Shown here in pieces: positions 9,645 to 47,954 of a DNA stretch of 48,785 bases. How positions within the stretch are numbered: position 1 is the first letter of the stretch; the number at the start of each line of letters is the position of its first letter. Made by a program: the position numbers and the translations under genes. Origin of the DNA: Dehalococcoidia bacterium (GTDB lineage: Bacteria > Chloroflexota > Dehalococcoidia > Lucifugimonadales > UBA3495); assembly GCA_022823105.1 (NCBI GenBank), contig JAJDXU010000234.1, positions 1-48,785 on the forward strand, read 5' to 3'. A model generated the notes under the pieces. That model saw only the letters and a program-made list of their open reading frames with translations. It was not told the origin of the DNA and ran no database searches.

Positions 9645-9897
9645 GTCGATCCCCTCACACGGCGGTTCCATATTTGCATTGTAACATTTTCTCTGACACT
9701 GTCGGATTACAGAGCCAATACCTTCGTACTTGGCTGCACAAACGTCCCCAACATCTCGGTGCCTGATTAGTCATGCCATCGAGTCCGCGACCAGGCCGCA
9801 ACGTTCTGAAAGAAGTGCAATAGAGGCCAATCGCAAGTTGCAGCGGAGAAATCCAAATGATATCGTGAATACTGAGCAAAAAGTGAGAGGAGATAGG

Positions 9898-10983
9898 ATG
9901 CTGACCGTGCAACAGGATAGTGAGTTCCAGGTAGACGACCTTCGGGTGGAGGACACAGAACCCACTGACGACGATGAACTCCAAGATATCCGTTACGAGA
10001 TCTCGACTTTCCCGACTGATTTTACCGTGCGGGTGATGTACGAGAAATGGAAGTCTGGGCAACTCGTCATCCCTGAATATCAGCGGCGCTACGTCTGGAG
10101 TCTACCCCAAGCTAGTCGGTTAATTGAATCGTTCCTATTGGGACTCCCGATCCCTCAAGTTTTCCTTTACCGGGAACACTCTGGTCCAGAACTCTACGTG
10201 GTCGACGGTCATCAACGACTGGCGACTATCGCTCATTTTTATGGTGGCACTTTTTCGGACGATCGCGAGTTCCGATTACGGGGTGTCGGTGCTGCCTGGG
10301 TCGACCGCACTTACGAAGAACTCAGTGAGGACGATAGATTGACCCTTGACGATGCTACATTGCGGTCCATCGTTATCCGACAGATCCAGCCCAGCGACAA
10401 CTCAAGCGTCTACCAGATTTTTGAGCGGCTAAACACCGGCGGCACCCAGCTCAATCCAATGGAGATCCGCAGGGCAATCCATCGTGGGCAAGCAAATGCT
10501 CTCCTGGATAGATTGAATGCAAACCCCGATTGGCGCATTTTGATCGGTCGAACTGAACCGGATCCTCGACTTCGCGATGTTGAAATGCTCCTTCGAGTTT
10601 TGGCCTTAGCTGATAGATGGCGAGAATACAAGAAACCCATGAAAAAATTTATCACTGACCATATGCAAATCCTCGATAAAGCGGACGAGCTTTACATTGC
10701 AGATATTGAACAGCGGTTCGCGGAAGCGTGCGGCCTGGTGAAGAATGCTTTAGGCGAAAAGCCCTTCCATCTCAGGCAAAGAATCAACTTGGCCGCTTTA
10801 GACGCAATCATGGCTTGCGCCGTTGAGCTGGGCGAACTTATGCACCGAAATCTTGCAGATGCGTATGGCGACCTCAAGAACAATTCCGTCTTTATGGAAA
10901 CGGTGACATACAACACCAGCGACGCCTCGGTCGTGCAACAACGAATGGAACTGGTCCACAATGCGGTGGGTTCGAAAATATGA
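9898..10983 (+). CDS. DUF262 domain protein (ParB/Srx-like N-terminal domain as in GmrSD/SspE); no DUF1524 nuclease domain recognised
   Basis: GGAG RBS before ATG 9898 (the tracked TTG start at 9730 adds non-coding-looking sequence). Motifs LVIPEYQRRYVWSLPQASRLIESFLLGLPIP and YVVDGHQRLATI (DGQQR-type), then FERLNTGGTQLNPMEIRRA. Confidence 0.8.
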   Translation: MLTVQQDSEFQVDDLRVEDTEPTDDDELQDIRYEISTFPTDFTVRVMYEKWKSGQLVIPEYQRRYVWSLPQASRLIESFLLGLPIPQVFLYREHSGPELYVVDGHQRLATIAHFYGGTFSDDREFRLRGVGAAWVDRTYEELSEDDRLTLDDATLRSIVIRQIQPSDNSSVYQIFERLNTGGTQLNPMEIRRAIHRGQANALLDRLNANPDWRILIGRTEPDPRLRDVEMLLRVLALADRWREYKKPMKKFITDHMQILDKADELYIADIEQRFAEACGLVKNALGEKPFHLRQRINLAALDAIMACAVELGELMHRNLADAYGDLKNNSVFMETVTYNTSDASVVQQRMELVHNAVGSKI

Positions 10984-11468
10984 CGACGATGTATCTGCCA
11001 CTTACGCAGACCGCGATTGCTGATTGTAGGGAACTAACGGTACAAAACCCGGATATTGACCCCGTCATCGGGGCATATTTAACCCGATACGTGAACGGCC
11101 TGATGTGCGCTGAAATCGAAGCTGTCGTGAGTGATCTGATCAAACGAAGATTGAAAGACGGATGTGCGGACACAGCGACGTCAAATTTTCTTTCATCAAT
11201 TGGTCGTAGCGCGATTAGGAACGCGACCGTATCTGAAATACGGGATAAGATGAAGCTATTCGGGACGGAGTATGCGAATCGATTTGATAATATTATTGAT
11301 AATGCTATTGGAGAATCGGGCCGAGAAAAACTTGGCGTGGCGGTACGTAACAGAAACGATAATGCCCATGACAAACCGGTCGATATCACGTTCAACGAGT
11401 TGGAAGAAGCATTTCAGGTTGCGACCAAAGTAGTAGACGCCGTGAGCAGCACGCTATCCAATCGCTGA
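10980..11468 (+). CDS. small all-helical protein with an Rx4H motif; putative HEPN-domain RNase
   Basis: ATGA overlap with the upstream stop (10980-10983). VAVRNRNDNAHDKP contains R-N-D-N-A-H in the C-terminal third, the expected HEPN helix-4 position. Size of 162 aa fits stand-alone HEPN proteins. Confidence 0.6.
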   Translation: MTTMYLPLTQTAIADCRELTVQNPDIDPVIGAYLTRYVNGLMCAEIEAVVSDLIKRRLKDGCADTATSNFLSSIGRSAIRNATVSEIRDKMKLFGTEYANRFDNIIDNAIGESGREKLGVAVRNRNDNAHDKPVDITFNELEEAFQVATKVVDAVSSTLSNR

Positions 11469-42322: not shown

Positions 42323-43111
42323 ATGGTAATGATCCACACCAGCGACGACATACTGCGCGTGTTGCGCGAGAGGCCGGAGTGGAAAGCGGACGTCCGGCGC
42401 GAGATCCTCTCCGAGGAGCTGATGAACCTGCCCGGCCGGTTCGATCAGTTCGCCGGGAAGACCGAGCAGTTCATGGCCGACACTCAGGAATTCATCGCAG
42501 AGCAACGTCAAATCAACGACGAGCAGCGCCAGTTCAACGACGAGCAGCGCCAGTTCAACACCGACACGCAGGAATTCATCGATGAGCAGCGCCAGTTCAA
42601 CGACGAACAGCGCCGGTTCAACGAGAAGGTCGACGGCTTTATCGACCGGACCAACGCACGGTTTGGCCGCATCGAGAGCGACATCTCGAATATGCGCGGC
42701 GAATACGCCCGGAACAACGCCGTGCGCGAGGCCACGGACATCGCCGAGGACATGGGCTTTCAAATGATTCGGGTTTGGACTGAAGCGGATTTGCGCGAAC
42801 TGATTCGAACCTCGGATACAACAGGGATAGTCGTTGCGGACCTGCGCAGCTTCCGTCGCGCGGACCTGATTATTGAGGCCATGGATGCCGGCGGGTCAAC
42901 CAACTACATCGCCGTGGAAATCTCAAACGAGGCTGACGAGCGCGACACCCGGCGCGCTCTGCGAAACGCCGCCTTCCTGACTCGGTTCACTGGCCAACCG
43001 GCCCGCGCCGCCATCGCCAGCATCCGCAACGACCGACGGATACAACACGTAATCGACAGCGGCGAAATCTACTGGCACGAACTTGCTGACCGGGACACAG
43101 TTCCTGAGTAA
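42323..43111 (+). CDS. coiled-coil protein with about 9 heptads and a C-terminal PD-(D/E)xK-like domain (paralog of 20382..21296)
   Basis: M(VM)IHTSDDILRVLRERPEW..ILSEELMNLPGRF, then the heptad array, then RSFRRADLIIEAMD...YIAVEISNEADERDTRRALRNAAFL. Collinear with the first copy. Confidence 0.7.
   Translation: MVMIHTSDDILRVLRERPEWKADVRREILSEELMNLPGRFDQFAGKTEQFMADTQEFIAEQRQINDEQRQFNDEQRQFNTDTQEFIDEQRQFNDEQRRFNEKVDGFIDRTNARFGRIESDISNMRGEYARNNAVREATDIAEDMGFQMIRVWTEADLRELIRTSDTTGIVVADLRSFRRADLIIEAMDAGGSTNYIAVEISNEADERDTRRALRNAAFLTRFTGQPARAAIASIRNDRRIQHVIDSGEIYWHELADRDTVPE
42461..42655 (+). repeat. 21-nt (heptad) tandem array, about 9 units
   Basis: The units encode TQEFIAE, QRQINDE, QRQFNDE, QRQFNTD, TQEFIDE, QRQFNDE, QRRFNEK and VDGFIDR. 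Confidence 0.75.
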
Positions 43112-43747: not shown

Positions 43748-44506
43748 CTATGGATTGGCTTCGTCTCTCTCGGGGTTTTCCGGTCCCAGAGCGTACGCGG
43801 GCGATCGCTCATCTCCCGGGCGCGGAAACTCCGATCCATCGTTGCCGAACCGTACTCCACGCGCCCGCATCATCGCCGTTGAGTTGGCCCTTGCCACCGC
43901 CCGCAGCACGTTGGACATGATGCCGCTGTTCTTGCGTACGCTCTTGGCCGGCGCCGTCACGACCTCCCGCGGCCCCGGTTCCAGCAAACCCCATCCGTCC
44001 GGCAGCATCTCCGCCAGCACCACTCCCCGGGGCGCCATGATGTAGTGAAAATCCGCGATGCTGAGAAATCGCGAGTCATGGAACTTGGTTGACACCGTAT
44101 CCAGCCGTTCCCGCAAACGTTCCTGCTCACCAAGCAGTCGTTCCAGGTCTGCGGCCGACGCCCGGTACGATGGCGTTTCCGCCAACTCGATCCGCCGCGC
44201 CAGCGAGTCAGCCCGTTTGCGCAGCCGCGCGATGTCGGCGTCGGTGTGGTTGTCCCGGGCAAAATCCGACCGGGAAACCTTGACCTCCACTGCGTAGATC
44301 ACGTTGGCCGGGCCAACGCCCACCACGTCAATCACCGACCCCCACGGCCCCTGCAGGCGTACCTCCAGCCCGATGCAACGACACCGGGCGACGCAATAAA
44401 GCCACTCCCAGGCTTCCCACTTCAGCCGGTAGGTAAGCTCCGATTCGCTGCCCAGCTTGAAGCGCTGCGCGTCTAGTCCGTATTCAGGTTGAGATTCTCC
44501 GGTCAA
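43748..44506 (-). CDS. MmcB-like PD-(D/E)xK nuclease-fold protein with an inserted coiled coil and an extended C-terminal tail
   Basis: SVIDVVGVGPANVIYAVEVKVSRSDFARD gives the D...EVK motif. About 45 aa of charged helix follow, then KFHDSRFLSIADFHYIMAPRGVV..MLPDGWGLLE, resembling the MmcB/DUF1052 C-terminal half. Confidence 0.55.
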   Translation of the reverse strand: MTGESQPEYGLDAQRFKLGSESELTYRLKWEAWEWLYCVARCRCIGLEVRLQGPWGSVIDVVGVGPANVIYAVEVKVSRSDFARDNHTDADIARLRKRADSLARRIELAETPSYRASAADLERLLGEQERLRERLDTVSTKFHDSRFLSIADFHYIMAPRGVVLAEMLPDGWGLLEPGPREVVTAPAKSVRKNSGIMSNVLRAVARANSTAMMRARGVRFGNDGSEFPRPGDERSPAYALGPENPERDEANP

Positions 44507-45591: not shown

Positions 45592-46416
45592 TCACGGCCA
45601 GCGAGCGTTTGACCACAGTGCATTGACCACTGCGCTCAAAAACTCCTCACGATGATGGATTTGGAAAACTGTCAATGGAGGAAATCTCATCGCATTGTAG
45701 AGTTTGAGGGGGAACTCCGTGCTATTCAGCGGCCGTTTTGCCCAATCGACTTGACGGCGGTGCGGGAACGGGCAGCCATCGTCCGGCTCCGGCTGGTAGT
45801 ACACGCCGGATTCAACACGGCCATATTGTAGTAAGGTATATTCCTTGGTTGGCGTAATGATGTAGTCGCCAGGCTTGATCCCCGACAAAAATCGAAGGAT
45901 TTGCCCCACGTTGGTTGCAACCCTGGCGTCGCCATCCTGAGGGTAGGCCATTTTATACAGGCATCTCAGCGCCTCTTTGTCCGTTACTTCAGTAAGGTCC
46001 GAGCCAGGTATCCAGCCGATCCCAGCATACCCACCGGCTACAAAACTATCGGTGTACTTGCCTTTCTCAGCGCCAACGCGCCAGATGTTGGGTGCTTCGT
46101 TTGCCCTTTTGTGATTGGTCGGCTGCGTCCGGTCGATGCTCCAGTTGGTCAGGTCACCGAACACGTCCATCTGCGACCTGTCCTCGGCTTCGGCCAGCGT
46201 CGTGATTGCTTCAGCCACGCTTTCGGCGTAGAGGAGGCCTCCAGCCTCAATCGGGACGGCAATTCCCCACATCCTGCCACGCTCTTCCTTACTGAAGATG
46301 GTGGCCCATGTTCCCCATGGGCGTTCGTCGCCCCATCCGTGCGCTTCCAGGTATGCCCGCAGGTTCGCAATTGCCAGGGACTCCATCGCCTCTTTGTCCC
46401 TAATTTGTACCTTCAT
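45592..46416 (-). CDS. two-domain protein: unassigned N-terminal domain plus PUA/EVE-like C-terminal domain (tentative)
   Basis: ATGA overlap with the upstream gene. The C-terminal half is NIWRVGAEKGKYTDSFVAGGYAGIGWIPGSDLTEV...IKPGDYIITPTKEYTLLQYGRVESGVYY...PHRRQVDWAKRPL...LTVFQI. This pattern recalls N-terminal reader domains of Mrr/McrB-type restriction proteins; that assignment is from memory and unverified. Confidence 0.55.
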   Translation of the reverse strand: MKVQIRDKEAMESLAIANLRAYLEAHGWGDERPWGTWATIFSKEERGRMWGIAVPIEAGGLLYAESVAEAITTLAEAEDRSQMDVFGDLTNWSIDRTQPTNHKRANEAPNIWRVGAEKGKYTDSFVAGGYAGIGWIPGSDLTEVTDKEALRCLYKMAYPQDGDARVATNVGQILRFLSGIKPGDYIITPTKEYTLLQYGRVESGVYYQPEPDDGCPFPHRRQVDWAKRPLNSTEFPLKLYNAMRFPPLTVFQIHHREEFLSAVVNALWSNARWP

Positions 46417-46895
46417 AATGTTTCACCCTTCGCCACCTTGTCCATCATGTCGGTTAACTGCGCACTGCTGAATACGTTGGCCGTCGGAATACGAACCGTC
46501 ACGCTGTTGCGGTTGGGTACAGGATGGTGTCCCACCGAGGAGAGCCAGTAGCCGCAGTGGCGTAAGCAAAGTTTGTCATCATTTTGTGTCAACCATTCGG
46601 TTTGGTCGTCCGGCAGTAGGACAACGATAAGGATGAAAGGATGCTTTTCCACACGAAGGTTATCGTAATCGCGCATAAGCAGGGGAAAATGTACTGCATG
46701 GCCGTCGCTGCTCATAACGCCCCGCGACGTGGACTTGGCCTGGAACCCGATGGTTTCTGAGATTCTAGCCCTTTTCAGAATCCCATCCACGCTTCTCCGA
46801 TCCACCTTCGGTTCTATCACCTCGCAATCTGCATGGGTTGCCACCGCGTTGATGTACGCCAGCGAAAATCTCTCCTTTTTCGTATTAGGATCCAT
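46413..46895 (-). CDS. DUF4365-like protein (PD-(D/E)xK restriction-endonuclease fold)
   Basis: ERFSLAYINAVATHADCEVIEPKVDRRSVDGIL....IGFQAKSTS gives the D...Q-x-K arrangement typical of DUF4365. 160 aa. The region is lower in GC by eye. Confidence 0.6.
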   Translation of the reverse strand: MDPNTKKERFSLAYINAVATHADCEVIEPKVDRRSVDGILKRARISETIGFQAKSTSRGVMSSDGHAVHFPLLMRDYDNLRVEKHPFILIVVLLPDDQTEWLTQNDDKLCLRHCGYWLSSVGHHPVPNRNSVTVRIPTANVFSSAQLTDMMDKVAKGETL

Positions 46896-47331: not shown

Positions 47332-47464
47332 TCCGTCAACTCCAATTTTCGGAAATTTGCGCTAATTCTAGCATAGCCCCGCTCAATCCTTCGCGTTCCG
47401 GCGCCTATGGGCCGGGGCTTTCGATTCTCCAGGAATCCCCTCACCCTGTCCTTTCCCGCGGCCT

Positions 47465-47860
47465 GTGACACTTCCCCCTTGCCCCTATCTTCCATCCATC
47501 CTTACCATCTAACTGTCCGACCGCCATGCAACTGCCCGACCGCCCGTATCCAACCCCAGACCCGTCCAATCTCCAATTCCAAACGCCGCTCCGCCAAACC
47601 GCTCACCAGCCCGCCAAAACCGTGAATATCGCCCCCAAAACCGCACTCGCCGCCCCCATTCTCCCCCACATCCCACCCCAATGCCCTGCTCAAATGACCG
47701 GAAATGAGCGGAAATGAGCGGGATTTCCCAAAAATCCCCGCCATCCCAACCCAATCCCCAATCCTGCCCCAGGTCCGCCTCTGGCGGTTCCATCCTGTGC
47801 ATTCAGGTACCTTTGCCCACATCGCCGAAGCCGCCGCCGAAAGCAGGCCGTCGCCCACCC
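47465..47860 (+). repeat. ~395-bp strand-asymmetric interspersed element, copy 2 (C-rich on the + strand)
   Basis: Block-wise homologous to the reverse complement of 24928-25300. The core 47689-47742 reads CTCAAATGACCGGAAATGAGCGGAAATGAGCGGGATTTCCCAAAAATCCCCGCC. Confidence 0.65.
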
Positions 47861-47891
47861 GGCTTCCTGTCCATCCCGGGCGCAAATGCGG

Positions 47892-47897
47892 TATAGT
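47892..47897 (+). promoter_or_regulatory. -10-like box TATAGT
   Basis: 58 nt upstream of ATG 47955. Confidence 0.3.
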
Positions 47898-47909
47898 TTT
47901 CGCCGACGC

Positions 47910-47938
47910 AACGGAGCCTTGAAGTAACGGAGCCTTGA
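47910..47938. repeat. tandem direct repeat AACGGAGCCTTGA x2 (16-nt period)
   Basis: Copies at 47910-47922 and 47926-47938 are identical. They lie between the -10-like box and the GAGGAGGG RBS. Confidence 0.7.
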
Positions 47939-47954
47939 GGCGAGGAGGGCCAGC

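Follow-up and report, generated by a model that had tools for sequence, protein, structure and literature searches.

A 48,785-nucleotide stretch of a Dehalococcoidia bacterium genome (assembly GCA_022823105.1, contig JAJDXU010000234.1, positions 1–48,785 of the forward strand; Chloroflexota; Dehalococcoidia; Lucifugimonadales; UBA3495 in GTDB), here called the window and analysed over its full length, contains two small overlapping genes, A and B, that raise a question: what is a minimal nuclease doing beside a protein that resembles a reader of modified bases? A first-pass annotation, made from the sequence alone, had answered with a split type IV-like restriction module, and at the level of predicted fold and family association that answer finds support. 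Our analyses indicate that the A–B cassette is probably a variant, with a sensing part exchanged through recombination, of the candidate anti-phage system PDC-M02. With middling confidence, we favour a split sensor-controlled nuclease, in which A would be the effector, the N-terminal domain (N-domain) of B a constant adaptor and the C-terminal domain of B, DUF8426, a modified-base reader whose ligand clusters A.

The two genes and their junction are laid out as follows:

46413–46895, minus strand: gene A, encoding a stand-alone DUF4365 (DREN-type PD-(D/E)xK) nuclease of 160 amino acids (aa), PDC-M02A in PADLOC.
45592–46416, minus strand: gene B, encoding a 274-aa two-domain partner (adaptor N-domain plus DUF8426 putative reader), delimited by its open reading frame and an AlphaFold2 model.
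46413–46416, minus strand: ATGA stop/start overlap of A and B, evident in the sequence and suggestive of translational coupling.
46424–46430, minus strand: Shine–Dalgarno-like AAGGGTG within the 3′ end of A, 7 nt before the ATG of B, putatively functional.

At the junction, which reads gaaacattATGAaggtac (cattATGAagg), the TGA stop of A and the ATG of B share positions 46413–46416. Both open reading frames lie exactly where the first-pass annotation had put them, and the overlap that it noticed is no chance feature, because the same 4 bp are kept in all 13 related loci from which the junction was extracted (11 A–B junctions, a remnant of A in locus L001 and the DUF1828–B junction of L012) and, by gene coordinates, in L019, L020 and L021. 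The same annotation had described the stretch as poorer in G+C (GC) than both flanks, an LLM oxidoreductase and a pterin dehydratase. The cassette (1304 bp) indeed has a GC of 0.546, compared with 0.651 for the LLM gene, 0.608 for the pterin dehydratase and a window mean of 0.628, and ranks 17th lowest among 475 sliding windows of equal size; the identities of the flanks agree with the Pfam labels Bac_luciferase and Pterin_4a in homologous loci, at 80–97% identity. These two genes are the immediate neighbours, and neither is a methyltransferase. Promoter and terminator scans gave signals at chance level only, no att-like or transposon signature was found around the cassette and the surrounding repeats were short two-copy matches as expected by chance. 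Searches of the window turned up neither tRNA genes nor Rfam families, and no further copy of DUF8426, Mrr_cat or DUF4365 that might have served locally as a donor for recombination.

The effector half of the cassette is the more readily identified, and its active site maps to a single short segment:

46734–46802, minus strand: catalytic-motif codons D32, D37, Q52 and K54 of gene A (VDRRSVDG ... FQAK), invariant in homologs.

Gene A matches Pfam DUF4365 (PF14280) over its full length (E 1.5e-14), and in PADLOC its residues 1–159 match positions 1–164 of 165 of the PDC-M02A profile PDLC04297 (E 4.4e-45); sequence searches gave no match among PDB chains and none in NCBIfam. In an alignment of 59 homologs, reaching down to 44% identity, D32, D37, G38, Q52 and K54 are invariant, which bears out the earlier assignment of A to DUF4365 on the strength of a D...QxK pattern. 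The AlphaFold2 model of A (predicted local distance difference test, pLDDT, 83; predicted template modelling score, pTM, 0.81) finds SPARDA DREN-APAZ chains as its best 13 Foldseek matches in the PDB (E down to 5e-6, query-normalised TM-score, TMq, ~0.62), followed by weaker matches to a Holliday-junction resolvase and I-Ssp6803I. DREN stands for ‘DNA and RNA effector nuclease’. In NbaSPARDA, nuclease activity is lost in the D41A and Q60A mutants and impaired in K62A (SPARDA paper), while Q62 and K64 of TmuRE are potential active-site residues (second SPARDA paper); the D/Q/K motif of A parallels both sets in order and spacing. By sequence and modelled fold, A appears to be a DREN-type nuclease in minimal, stand-alone form whose active site is intact, and would be the active endonuclease that type IV restriction calls for. 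Neither Pfam nor PADLOC detected an APAZ domain or Argonaute in A or B, A being the nuclease domain alone. In SPARDA, the DREN domain on its own is a monomer in which no nuclease activity can be detected, and it becomes active upon tetramerisation imposed by the sensor filament; by analogy, A may likewise require assembly for activity. The exact A and B proteins are both present in NCBI/ENA without a name, and the PHROGs families phrog_27905 and phrog_10226 match A and B.

Gene B is a composite. Its AlphaFold2 model (pLDDT 82.8) consists of two domains and a disordered linker, and the protein has no match in our local Pfam-A or NCBIfam libraries:

46141–46416, minus strand: N-domain of B, residues 1–92, alpha-alpha-beta3-alpha-alpha, a PDC-M02B module and proposed A-binding adaptor.
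46159–46194, minus strand: codons 75–86 of B (AEAEDRSQMDVF), a near-invariant motif that ends the N-domain and coincides with the recombination junction.
46099–46140, minus strand: interdomain linker of B, residues 93–106, disordered (pLDDT <50) and unalignable between architectures.
45613–46098, minus strand: C-terminal domain of B, residues 107–268, DUF8426 (PF28530), a YTH/EVE-like PUA-superfamily fold and putative modified-base reader.

The first-pass annotation had left the N-terminal domain of B unassigned, but it is the conserved N-domain of PDC-M02B: residues 1–96 of B match positions 1–96, and only those, of the ~380-position PDC-M02B hidden Markov model in PADLOC (E 1.5e-18). A canonical protein, represented here by a scan of one distant partner (L013), covers positions 1–375 of 380 (E 2e-128). 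Aligned with canonical PDC-M02B proteins of Azospirillum and Competibacterales, the N-domain shares 14 invariant residues, and the proteins are unrelated beyond about residue 95; the ~280-residue C-terminal region of canonical PDC-M02B has no Pfam or PDB match. Conservation is at least 90% at E78, R80, S81, Q82, V85, F86 and D88 of B. Outside the clade of the window (Azospirillum, Competibacterales and others), homologs of A at 44–51% identity are each followed by an overlapping gene for a 375–388-aa protein, with overlaps of 4–7 bp in these distant PDC-M02 pairs. The cassette therefore resembles PDC-M02, itself a computational candidate system only, in its full-length PDC-M02A protein, in its adjacent, co-oriented and overlapping genes and in positions 1–96 of PDC-M02B, and differs in that DUF8426 replaces the canonical C-terminal region. 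With B covering only a quarter of the PDC-M02B profile, the cassette does not, by sequence, count as a canonical member. The earlier remark that the pairing was not recognised as a named system needs amending to this extent: A plus some 96 residues of B are PDC-M02, while the combined architecture does fall outside it.

Phages carry related folds. A 101-aa Nodularia phage protein (A0A482MK90) in BFVD resembles the N-domain fold (target-normalised TM-score, TMt, 0.80, E 5e-5), and a 381-aa protein of Leptospira phage LE1 matches the gene B model over ~105 columns; a stand-alone phage N-domain could serve as a decoy.

What, then, has taken the place of the canonical sensing region? Residues 110–265 of B match positions 3–159 of 324 of the PDC-S02 profile PDLC04806 (E 1.8e-50, PADLOC), and close homologs of B bear PF28530 (DUF8426) as a precomputed Pfam label. 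PDC-S02 is a single-protein, Mrr-family candidate that joins DUF8426 to an Mrr_cat nuclease domain, and a full-length example (P0050) occupies the same chromosomal site in a relative. B carries the N-terminal DUF8426 of such proteins and ends 6 residues past that domain; Mrr_cat (PF04471) was detected neither in B by Pfam nor anywhere in the window by tblastn with P0050. Lacking Mrr_cat, drawing its nuclease in trans from the DUF4365 family and bearing an extra N-terminal adaptor on B, the cassette is not, as judged from its domains, a PDC-S02 member either.

The DUF8426 domain is modelled with pLDDT mostly above 90. The top 26 Foldseek matches of B in the PDB are almost all YTH domains, readers of N6-methyladenine (m6A), together with 2gbs, which we take to be an EVE-type protein; most of the hits have probabilities of 0.95–1.0 (two of 0.87–0.90), with E ~1e-3 and, for most, TMt ~0.5 (range 0.36–0.55). 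The match is moderate yet uniform in family. The proposal that the C-terminal half of B is a PUA-like fold akin to the N-terminal domains of Mrr- and McrB-like proteins thus held up, since DUF8426 heads both Mrr-type and McrB-type proteins. The window copy keeps the most conserved residues of the family (W112, G119, F125, Y130, W135, F176, D184, G199, R220, R221 and W225), and modelled fold, residue conservation and family association together support a role as putative reader.

An exhaustive HMMER search delineated DUF8426 as 1440 representative clusters at E ≤ 1e-3, whereas a word-index homolog search with the reader domain returned the close clade only. Among 82 family members of at least 240 aa, 44 carry Mrr_cat and 17 a McrB-type AAA_5 domain, often behind two tandem DUF8426 copies; rarer partners are GmrSD_N (3/82), a DUF900 hydrolase (3/82), HEPN_Swt1 (2/82) and NERD plus a protein kinase (1/82). 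Because DUF8426 is fused to type IV effectors and folds like base readers, sensing of a nucleic-acid ligand is the function argued for. The pattern of partners agrees with the published one for EVE and YTH-like readers in type IV restriction: prokaryotic YTH-like domains, hard to separate from EVE, are fused to McrB GTPases or PD-(D/E)xK nucleases (Bell et al.). A 336-aa Myoviridae protein in BFVD also matches DUF8426 (E 9e-11), so that phages carry both modules of B.

The same data bear on an RNA-directed version of the system, in which RNA would be both the methylated ligand read by the YTH-like domain (m6A in RNA of phage or host, in tRNA or in rRNA) and the substrate degraded by the DREN nuclease. 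The closest structural matches are eukaryotic m6A-RNA readers, DREN can cut RNA as well as DNA, the YTH-like domains of CoCoNuT systems are predicted to target RNA and DUF8426 is also fused to HEPN_Swt1. Most DUF8426 partners, however (Mrr_cat, McrB-type AAA_5 and GmrSD_N), are DNA-restriction families, m6A in DNA is the reported ligand of a McrB-fused YTH domain from an archaeon and the cassette lacks RNA-specific accessory domains, so we consider reading of RNA rather improbable.

Comparison of relatives shows that the sensing part of B varies while its position on the chromosome does not. All five genome hits (5/5) were Dehalococcoidia metagenome-assembled genomes syntenic with the window, sharing the order pterin dehydratase, A, B, LLM oxidoreductase, PD-(D/E)xK-like protein and isochorismatase; further B homologs that we looked up, down to 45% identity, all lay at the same Pterin_4a/LLM oxidoreductase site. 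Reader-only forms of ~274–315 aa occur in the window, L002, L006, L007, L008 and L019–L021, the ~274-aa form being intact in many distinct sequences at 60–81% identity. Forms of ~430 aa with reader plus Mrr_cat occur in L009–L011 and L001. In L005 the N-domain is joined to a complete PDC-S11 (P0055), and a PADLOC scan identified both P0055 (431 aa) and P0049 (357 aa) as chimeras of the N-domain with PDC-S11, distinct from canonical PDC-M02B. L003 and L004 encode an N-domain-only B of 102 aa (10001–10309) beside an intact 160-aa A. L012 has no A (no DUF4365) and its PDC-S02 protein lacks the N-domain, with PDC-M24-like genes in front.

Several loci hold further genes or altered copies. A HEPN/MNT pair (NTase_sub_bind plus Polbeta) sits between Pterin_4a and DUF4365 in L001, L005, L011 and L020, and a PDC-M24A/B-like pair (DUF6978 plus DUF1828) at the same site in L006 and L012, where the DUF1828 gene overlaps the full PDC-S02 by 4 bp. 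Gene A of L001 (9867–10004) is a 45-codon remnant without the QxK motif that retains the ATGA junction, and the B that follows (10001–11320, 439 aa, Mrr_cat) has a GWGDERP duplication; this cassette looks like a decaying or remodelled copy. P0016 (341 aa, on a 296-kb contig) is an N-domain–DUF8426 protein in which an internal Mrr_cat deletion removes the catalytic core, and is likely an intermediate between the 430-aa and 274-aa forms. L009 and L010 also encode, at 1–219 (the gene runs off the end of the locus) and ~6 kb off the cassette, a second, stand-alone DUF8426–Mrr_cat protein of 350 aa, a possible donor for reader exchange.

In every locus examined, the N-domain is present wherever A is intact, and L012 lacks both; L003 and L004 would fit a rule that an intact A does not tolerate loss of the N-domain. 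Such a dependency could also mark a toxin–antitoxin (TA) or abortive module that reads no modification at all, the N-domain restraining a toxic A, DUF8426 sensing another trigger (for instance a phage protein) or tuning stability, and loss or titration of B setting A free. Two small, translationally coupled genes make a TA-like layout, a nuclease kept beside an N-domain-only B suits that idea, Foldseek gives the N-domain a weak match to HicA/dsRBD-like folds, HEPN/MNT TA pairs share the site and the N-domain fold is known as a stand-alone protein from a phage. Yet SPARDA DREN alone is monomeric and inactive, so A may need no neutralising, and DUF8426, which is under purifying selection (below), has a base-reader-like fold and is overwhelmingly fused to type IV effectors. 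We regard a TA or abortive module of this kind as unlikely.

How did B come by its reader? The window and L019 are 93% identical in DUF8426, with a synonymous divergence (dS) of 0.13, against a dS of 0.7–0.9 in the flanks; in A and the N-domain, dS is saturated or exceeds 1.3 and identity is only 58% and 54%, respectively. The A and N-domain sequences of the window are instead close to L003, L005 and L002 (nucleotide identity 0.80–0.97), and from ~46190 downstream nucleotide identity with L019 is 0.88–0.98. At the junction, sliding identity climbs from 0.66 to 0.88 against L019 and drops from 0.82 to 0.57 against L003. The switch falls on codons ~75–88, the AEAEDRSQxDVF motif that closes the N-domain, with the crossover resolved only to about 46100–46250. 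The modules have thus been exchanged by recombination at a conserved junction and have incongruent histories.

The exchanged parts are nonetheless maintained. Across five loci with the ~274-aa form of B, pairwise ratios of non-synonymous to synonymous substitution (dN/dS) were 0.04–0.15 for A, 0.12–0.27 for the N-domain and 0.13–0.26 for DUF8426, with 0.03–0.075 for the flanking genes; because dN/dS is low in all its parts, the cassette is held by selection and is no relic. On these ratios, we rejected a decaying pseudogene as the main explanation. One may still imagine that B in particular is a leftover of an N-domain–DUF8426–Mrr_cat fusion that has lost its nuclease, leaving the cassette inert: decay intermediates occur at the same site (the Mrr_cat deletion of P0016, the 45-codon A of L001, the 102-aa B of L003 and L004), and the subclade of the window has replaced two conserved DUF8426 arginines. 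That the ~274-aa form persists intact in so many divergent sequences, that both DUF8426 and A show constraint, that the catalytic residues of A are invariant and that lineages have recently exchanged the DUF8426 segment and kept it all speak against an inert remnant, which we consider very unlikely.

Similar reasoning applies to a housekeeping role in nucleic-acid metabolism or repair, inherited vertically in this Dehalococcoidia clade with no part in defence. The constant site between Pterin_4a and the LLM oxidoreductase, even at 45% identity of B, the lack of mobile-element signatures or bounding repeats and the shared orientation of cassette and neighbours would suit such a role. Cassette proteins are, however, just 54–94% identical where the flanks are 90–97% identical, the allele classes of the cassette are older than the flanks, the histories of its modules disagree and the site shows presence/absence variation and domain swapping. 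In addition, GC at third codon positions (GC3) of A and B is 0.51–0.73 in every locus, against 0.75–0.90 in the flanks, a persistently foreign composition that points to a gene pool circulating by recombination rather than to a recent single acquisition. Relatives in other phyla occupy unrelated positions, and one distant PDC-M02 pair is placed in a defence island, where its neighbours are TA modules, a Type ISP restriction enzyme, an NgoFVII-like gene and a Lit-family (PF07314) gene. Of the explanations considered here, a housekeeping role is the one to which we give least credence. A defence setting is argued for because the site also hosts HEPN/MNT and PDC-M24-like pairs, because the distant pair lies near restriction and TA genes and because the cassette keeps its low GC3 in every host.

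For the split sensor-controlled nuclease, we envisage that synthesis of A and B is coupled, that the two proteins associate through the N-domain of B and that the small nuclease A is inactive alone, like monomeric SPARDA DREN. DUF8426, presumably taken from Mrr-type (PDC-S02) enzymes, would bind a ligand, most likely a modified base in invading DNA or, less likely, in RNA. Binding would bring several A–B units together; their nuclease domains would then oligomerise and either cut the target or cut indiscriminately, in abortive infection, which would give the pair its anti-phage function. Activation by clustering of A into an active oligomer is modelled on SPARDA.

A number of observations weigh against this proposal. 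The fold match is moderate, with E ~1e-3, TMt ~0.5 and a root-mean-square deviation of 7–10 Å on a two-domain query. B has no sequence-level match to EVE, YTH, ASCH or Mrr_N in Pfam-A (E ≤ 1), so that the profile check for EVE, ASCH and Mrr_N suggested by the first-pass annotation came back negative; DUF8426 falls outside the EVE (PF01878) and YTH (PF04146) profiles, and Pfam files it apart. Neither B itself nor a profile of the B family found a match among PDB sequences. Two positions that are arginine in 78% and 77% of the DUF8426 family are G115 and S232 in the window copy, and ligand or backbone contacts may be altered in this subclade. Across ten pairs, loci that are more alike in A are also more alike in the N-domain (correlation of identities, r = 0.93) and not in DUF8426 (r = −0.40). 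This fits a functional unit of A and N-domain, but the correlation is confounded by physical adjacency and comes from few, related loci. All reader-type pairs lie at one syntenic site with housekeeping-like flanks, and association with defence islands is weak for the clade. The expectation that the two genes would be conserved together elsewhere is borne out in the many loci that keep the 4-bp overlap, but pairs of the window architecture share one site in one clade, and their conservation is partly vertical inheritance. One PDC-S02 representative of the DUF8426 plus Mrr_cat type gave Escherichia coli no protection against T4, T5 or T7. The literature that we searched yielded no experimental evidence for PDC-M02 and no mention of PDC-M02, PDC-M02A/B or DUF8426.

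Set beside known systems, the cassette appears to share the chassis of PDC-M02, the sensor of PDC-S02 and the effector of SPARDA. SPARDA systems pair a short prokaryotic Argonaute (pAgo) with a DREN/DUF4365-APAZ protein; A has the same effector nuclease fold and D...QxK catalytic residues, and in both cases a sensor on a separate or linked module would govern a small nuclease that has no activity in monomeric form. Having neither APAZ nor an Argonaute gene, the cassette is, on domain content, not a SPARDA system: its sensor would be of PUA type rather than a guide-RNA-programmed pAgo, and filament or tetramer activation is in its case an extrapolation. With the PUA-superfamily modification-dependent enzymes (EVE-HNH VcaM4I and TspA15I, YTH-like-McrB, McrBC and YTH-like-PD-(D/E)xK) it shares the combination of a PUA-type fold with a nuclease. 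Here, unlike in those enzymes, reader and nuclease are separate polypeptides, bridged, as we propose, by a dedicated adaptor, and the putative reader has no sequence match to the EVE or YTH profiles. Stand-alone EVE and ASCH proteins with separately encoded nucleases in one operon (Bell, Wolf, Koonin 2020) offer an earlier example of reader and nuclease as separate gene products; their partners are SWI2/SNF2-nuclease or type I restriction–modification proteins in archaea, in contrast to the minimal DREN found here, and the reader of the cassette carries a PDC-M02B adaptor.

Elsewhere in the window, a second low-GC (0.48–0.52) gene pair with a 4-bp overlap lies at 9730–11468 on the plus strand. 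Its first gene encodes a 417-aa GmrSD_N/DUF262 protein (Pfam E 4e-27; PADLOC NsnA E 2e-61 and PD-T4-2_A E 2e-40) and its second a 162-aa RiboL-PSP HEPN protein (E 2e-9). The pair has the look of a further defence module. Two conserved syntenic neighbours of the cassette, at 42323–43111 (plus strand) and 43748–44506 (minus strand), have no significant Pfam or PADLOC match. By eye, one of these two (262 aa, with QRQFNDEQR-type repeats) is PD-(D/E)xK-like in its C-terminal ADLIIEA...VEISNEAD, and the other (252 aa), with the motif VIDVVGV...YAVEVKVSRSDF, is MmcB-type nuclease-like. Positions 47350–47950, between the pterin dehydratase and an AP_endonuc_2-type gene, are poor in open reading frames and have a GC skew of −0.44 to −0.48; no Rfam family or tRNA was found there.

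Four kinds of module have been seen after the N-domain: the YTH-like reader, a whole Mrr-type enzyme, PDC-S11 and the canonical PDC-M02B domain. This leads us to suggest, tentatively, a plug-and-play immune chassis, in which a DREN nuclease and a ~90-residue adaptor that both tethers and controls it would take up interchangeable modules by homologous recombination at AEAEDRSQxDVF, related strains would exchange specificities at a fixed site, activation would proceed by SPARDA-like oligomerisation without an Argonaute and phage copies of the adaptor fold might act as decoys. What interests us most in the locus is that sensors have been swapped at a fixed site and that DREN would be used without an Argonaute. 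If the proposed model of the cassette holds, DREN would be a general defence effector driven by differing sensors through a small adaptor, beyond Argonaute-controlled SPARDA, and a small two-protein, modification-sensing nuclease of this kind might be used as a reagent for detecting modified bases. For the family, it would provide a first functional hypothesis for DUF8426, with its at least 1440 clusters, and for the PADLOC candidates PDC-M02 and PDC-S02; for these bacteria, it would be a natural case of sensor exchange at a domain boundary and a fixed site, one that could be studied in close relatives differing only in their sensor.

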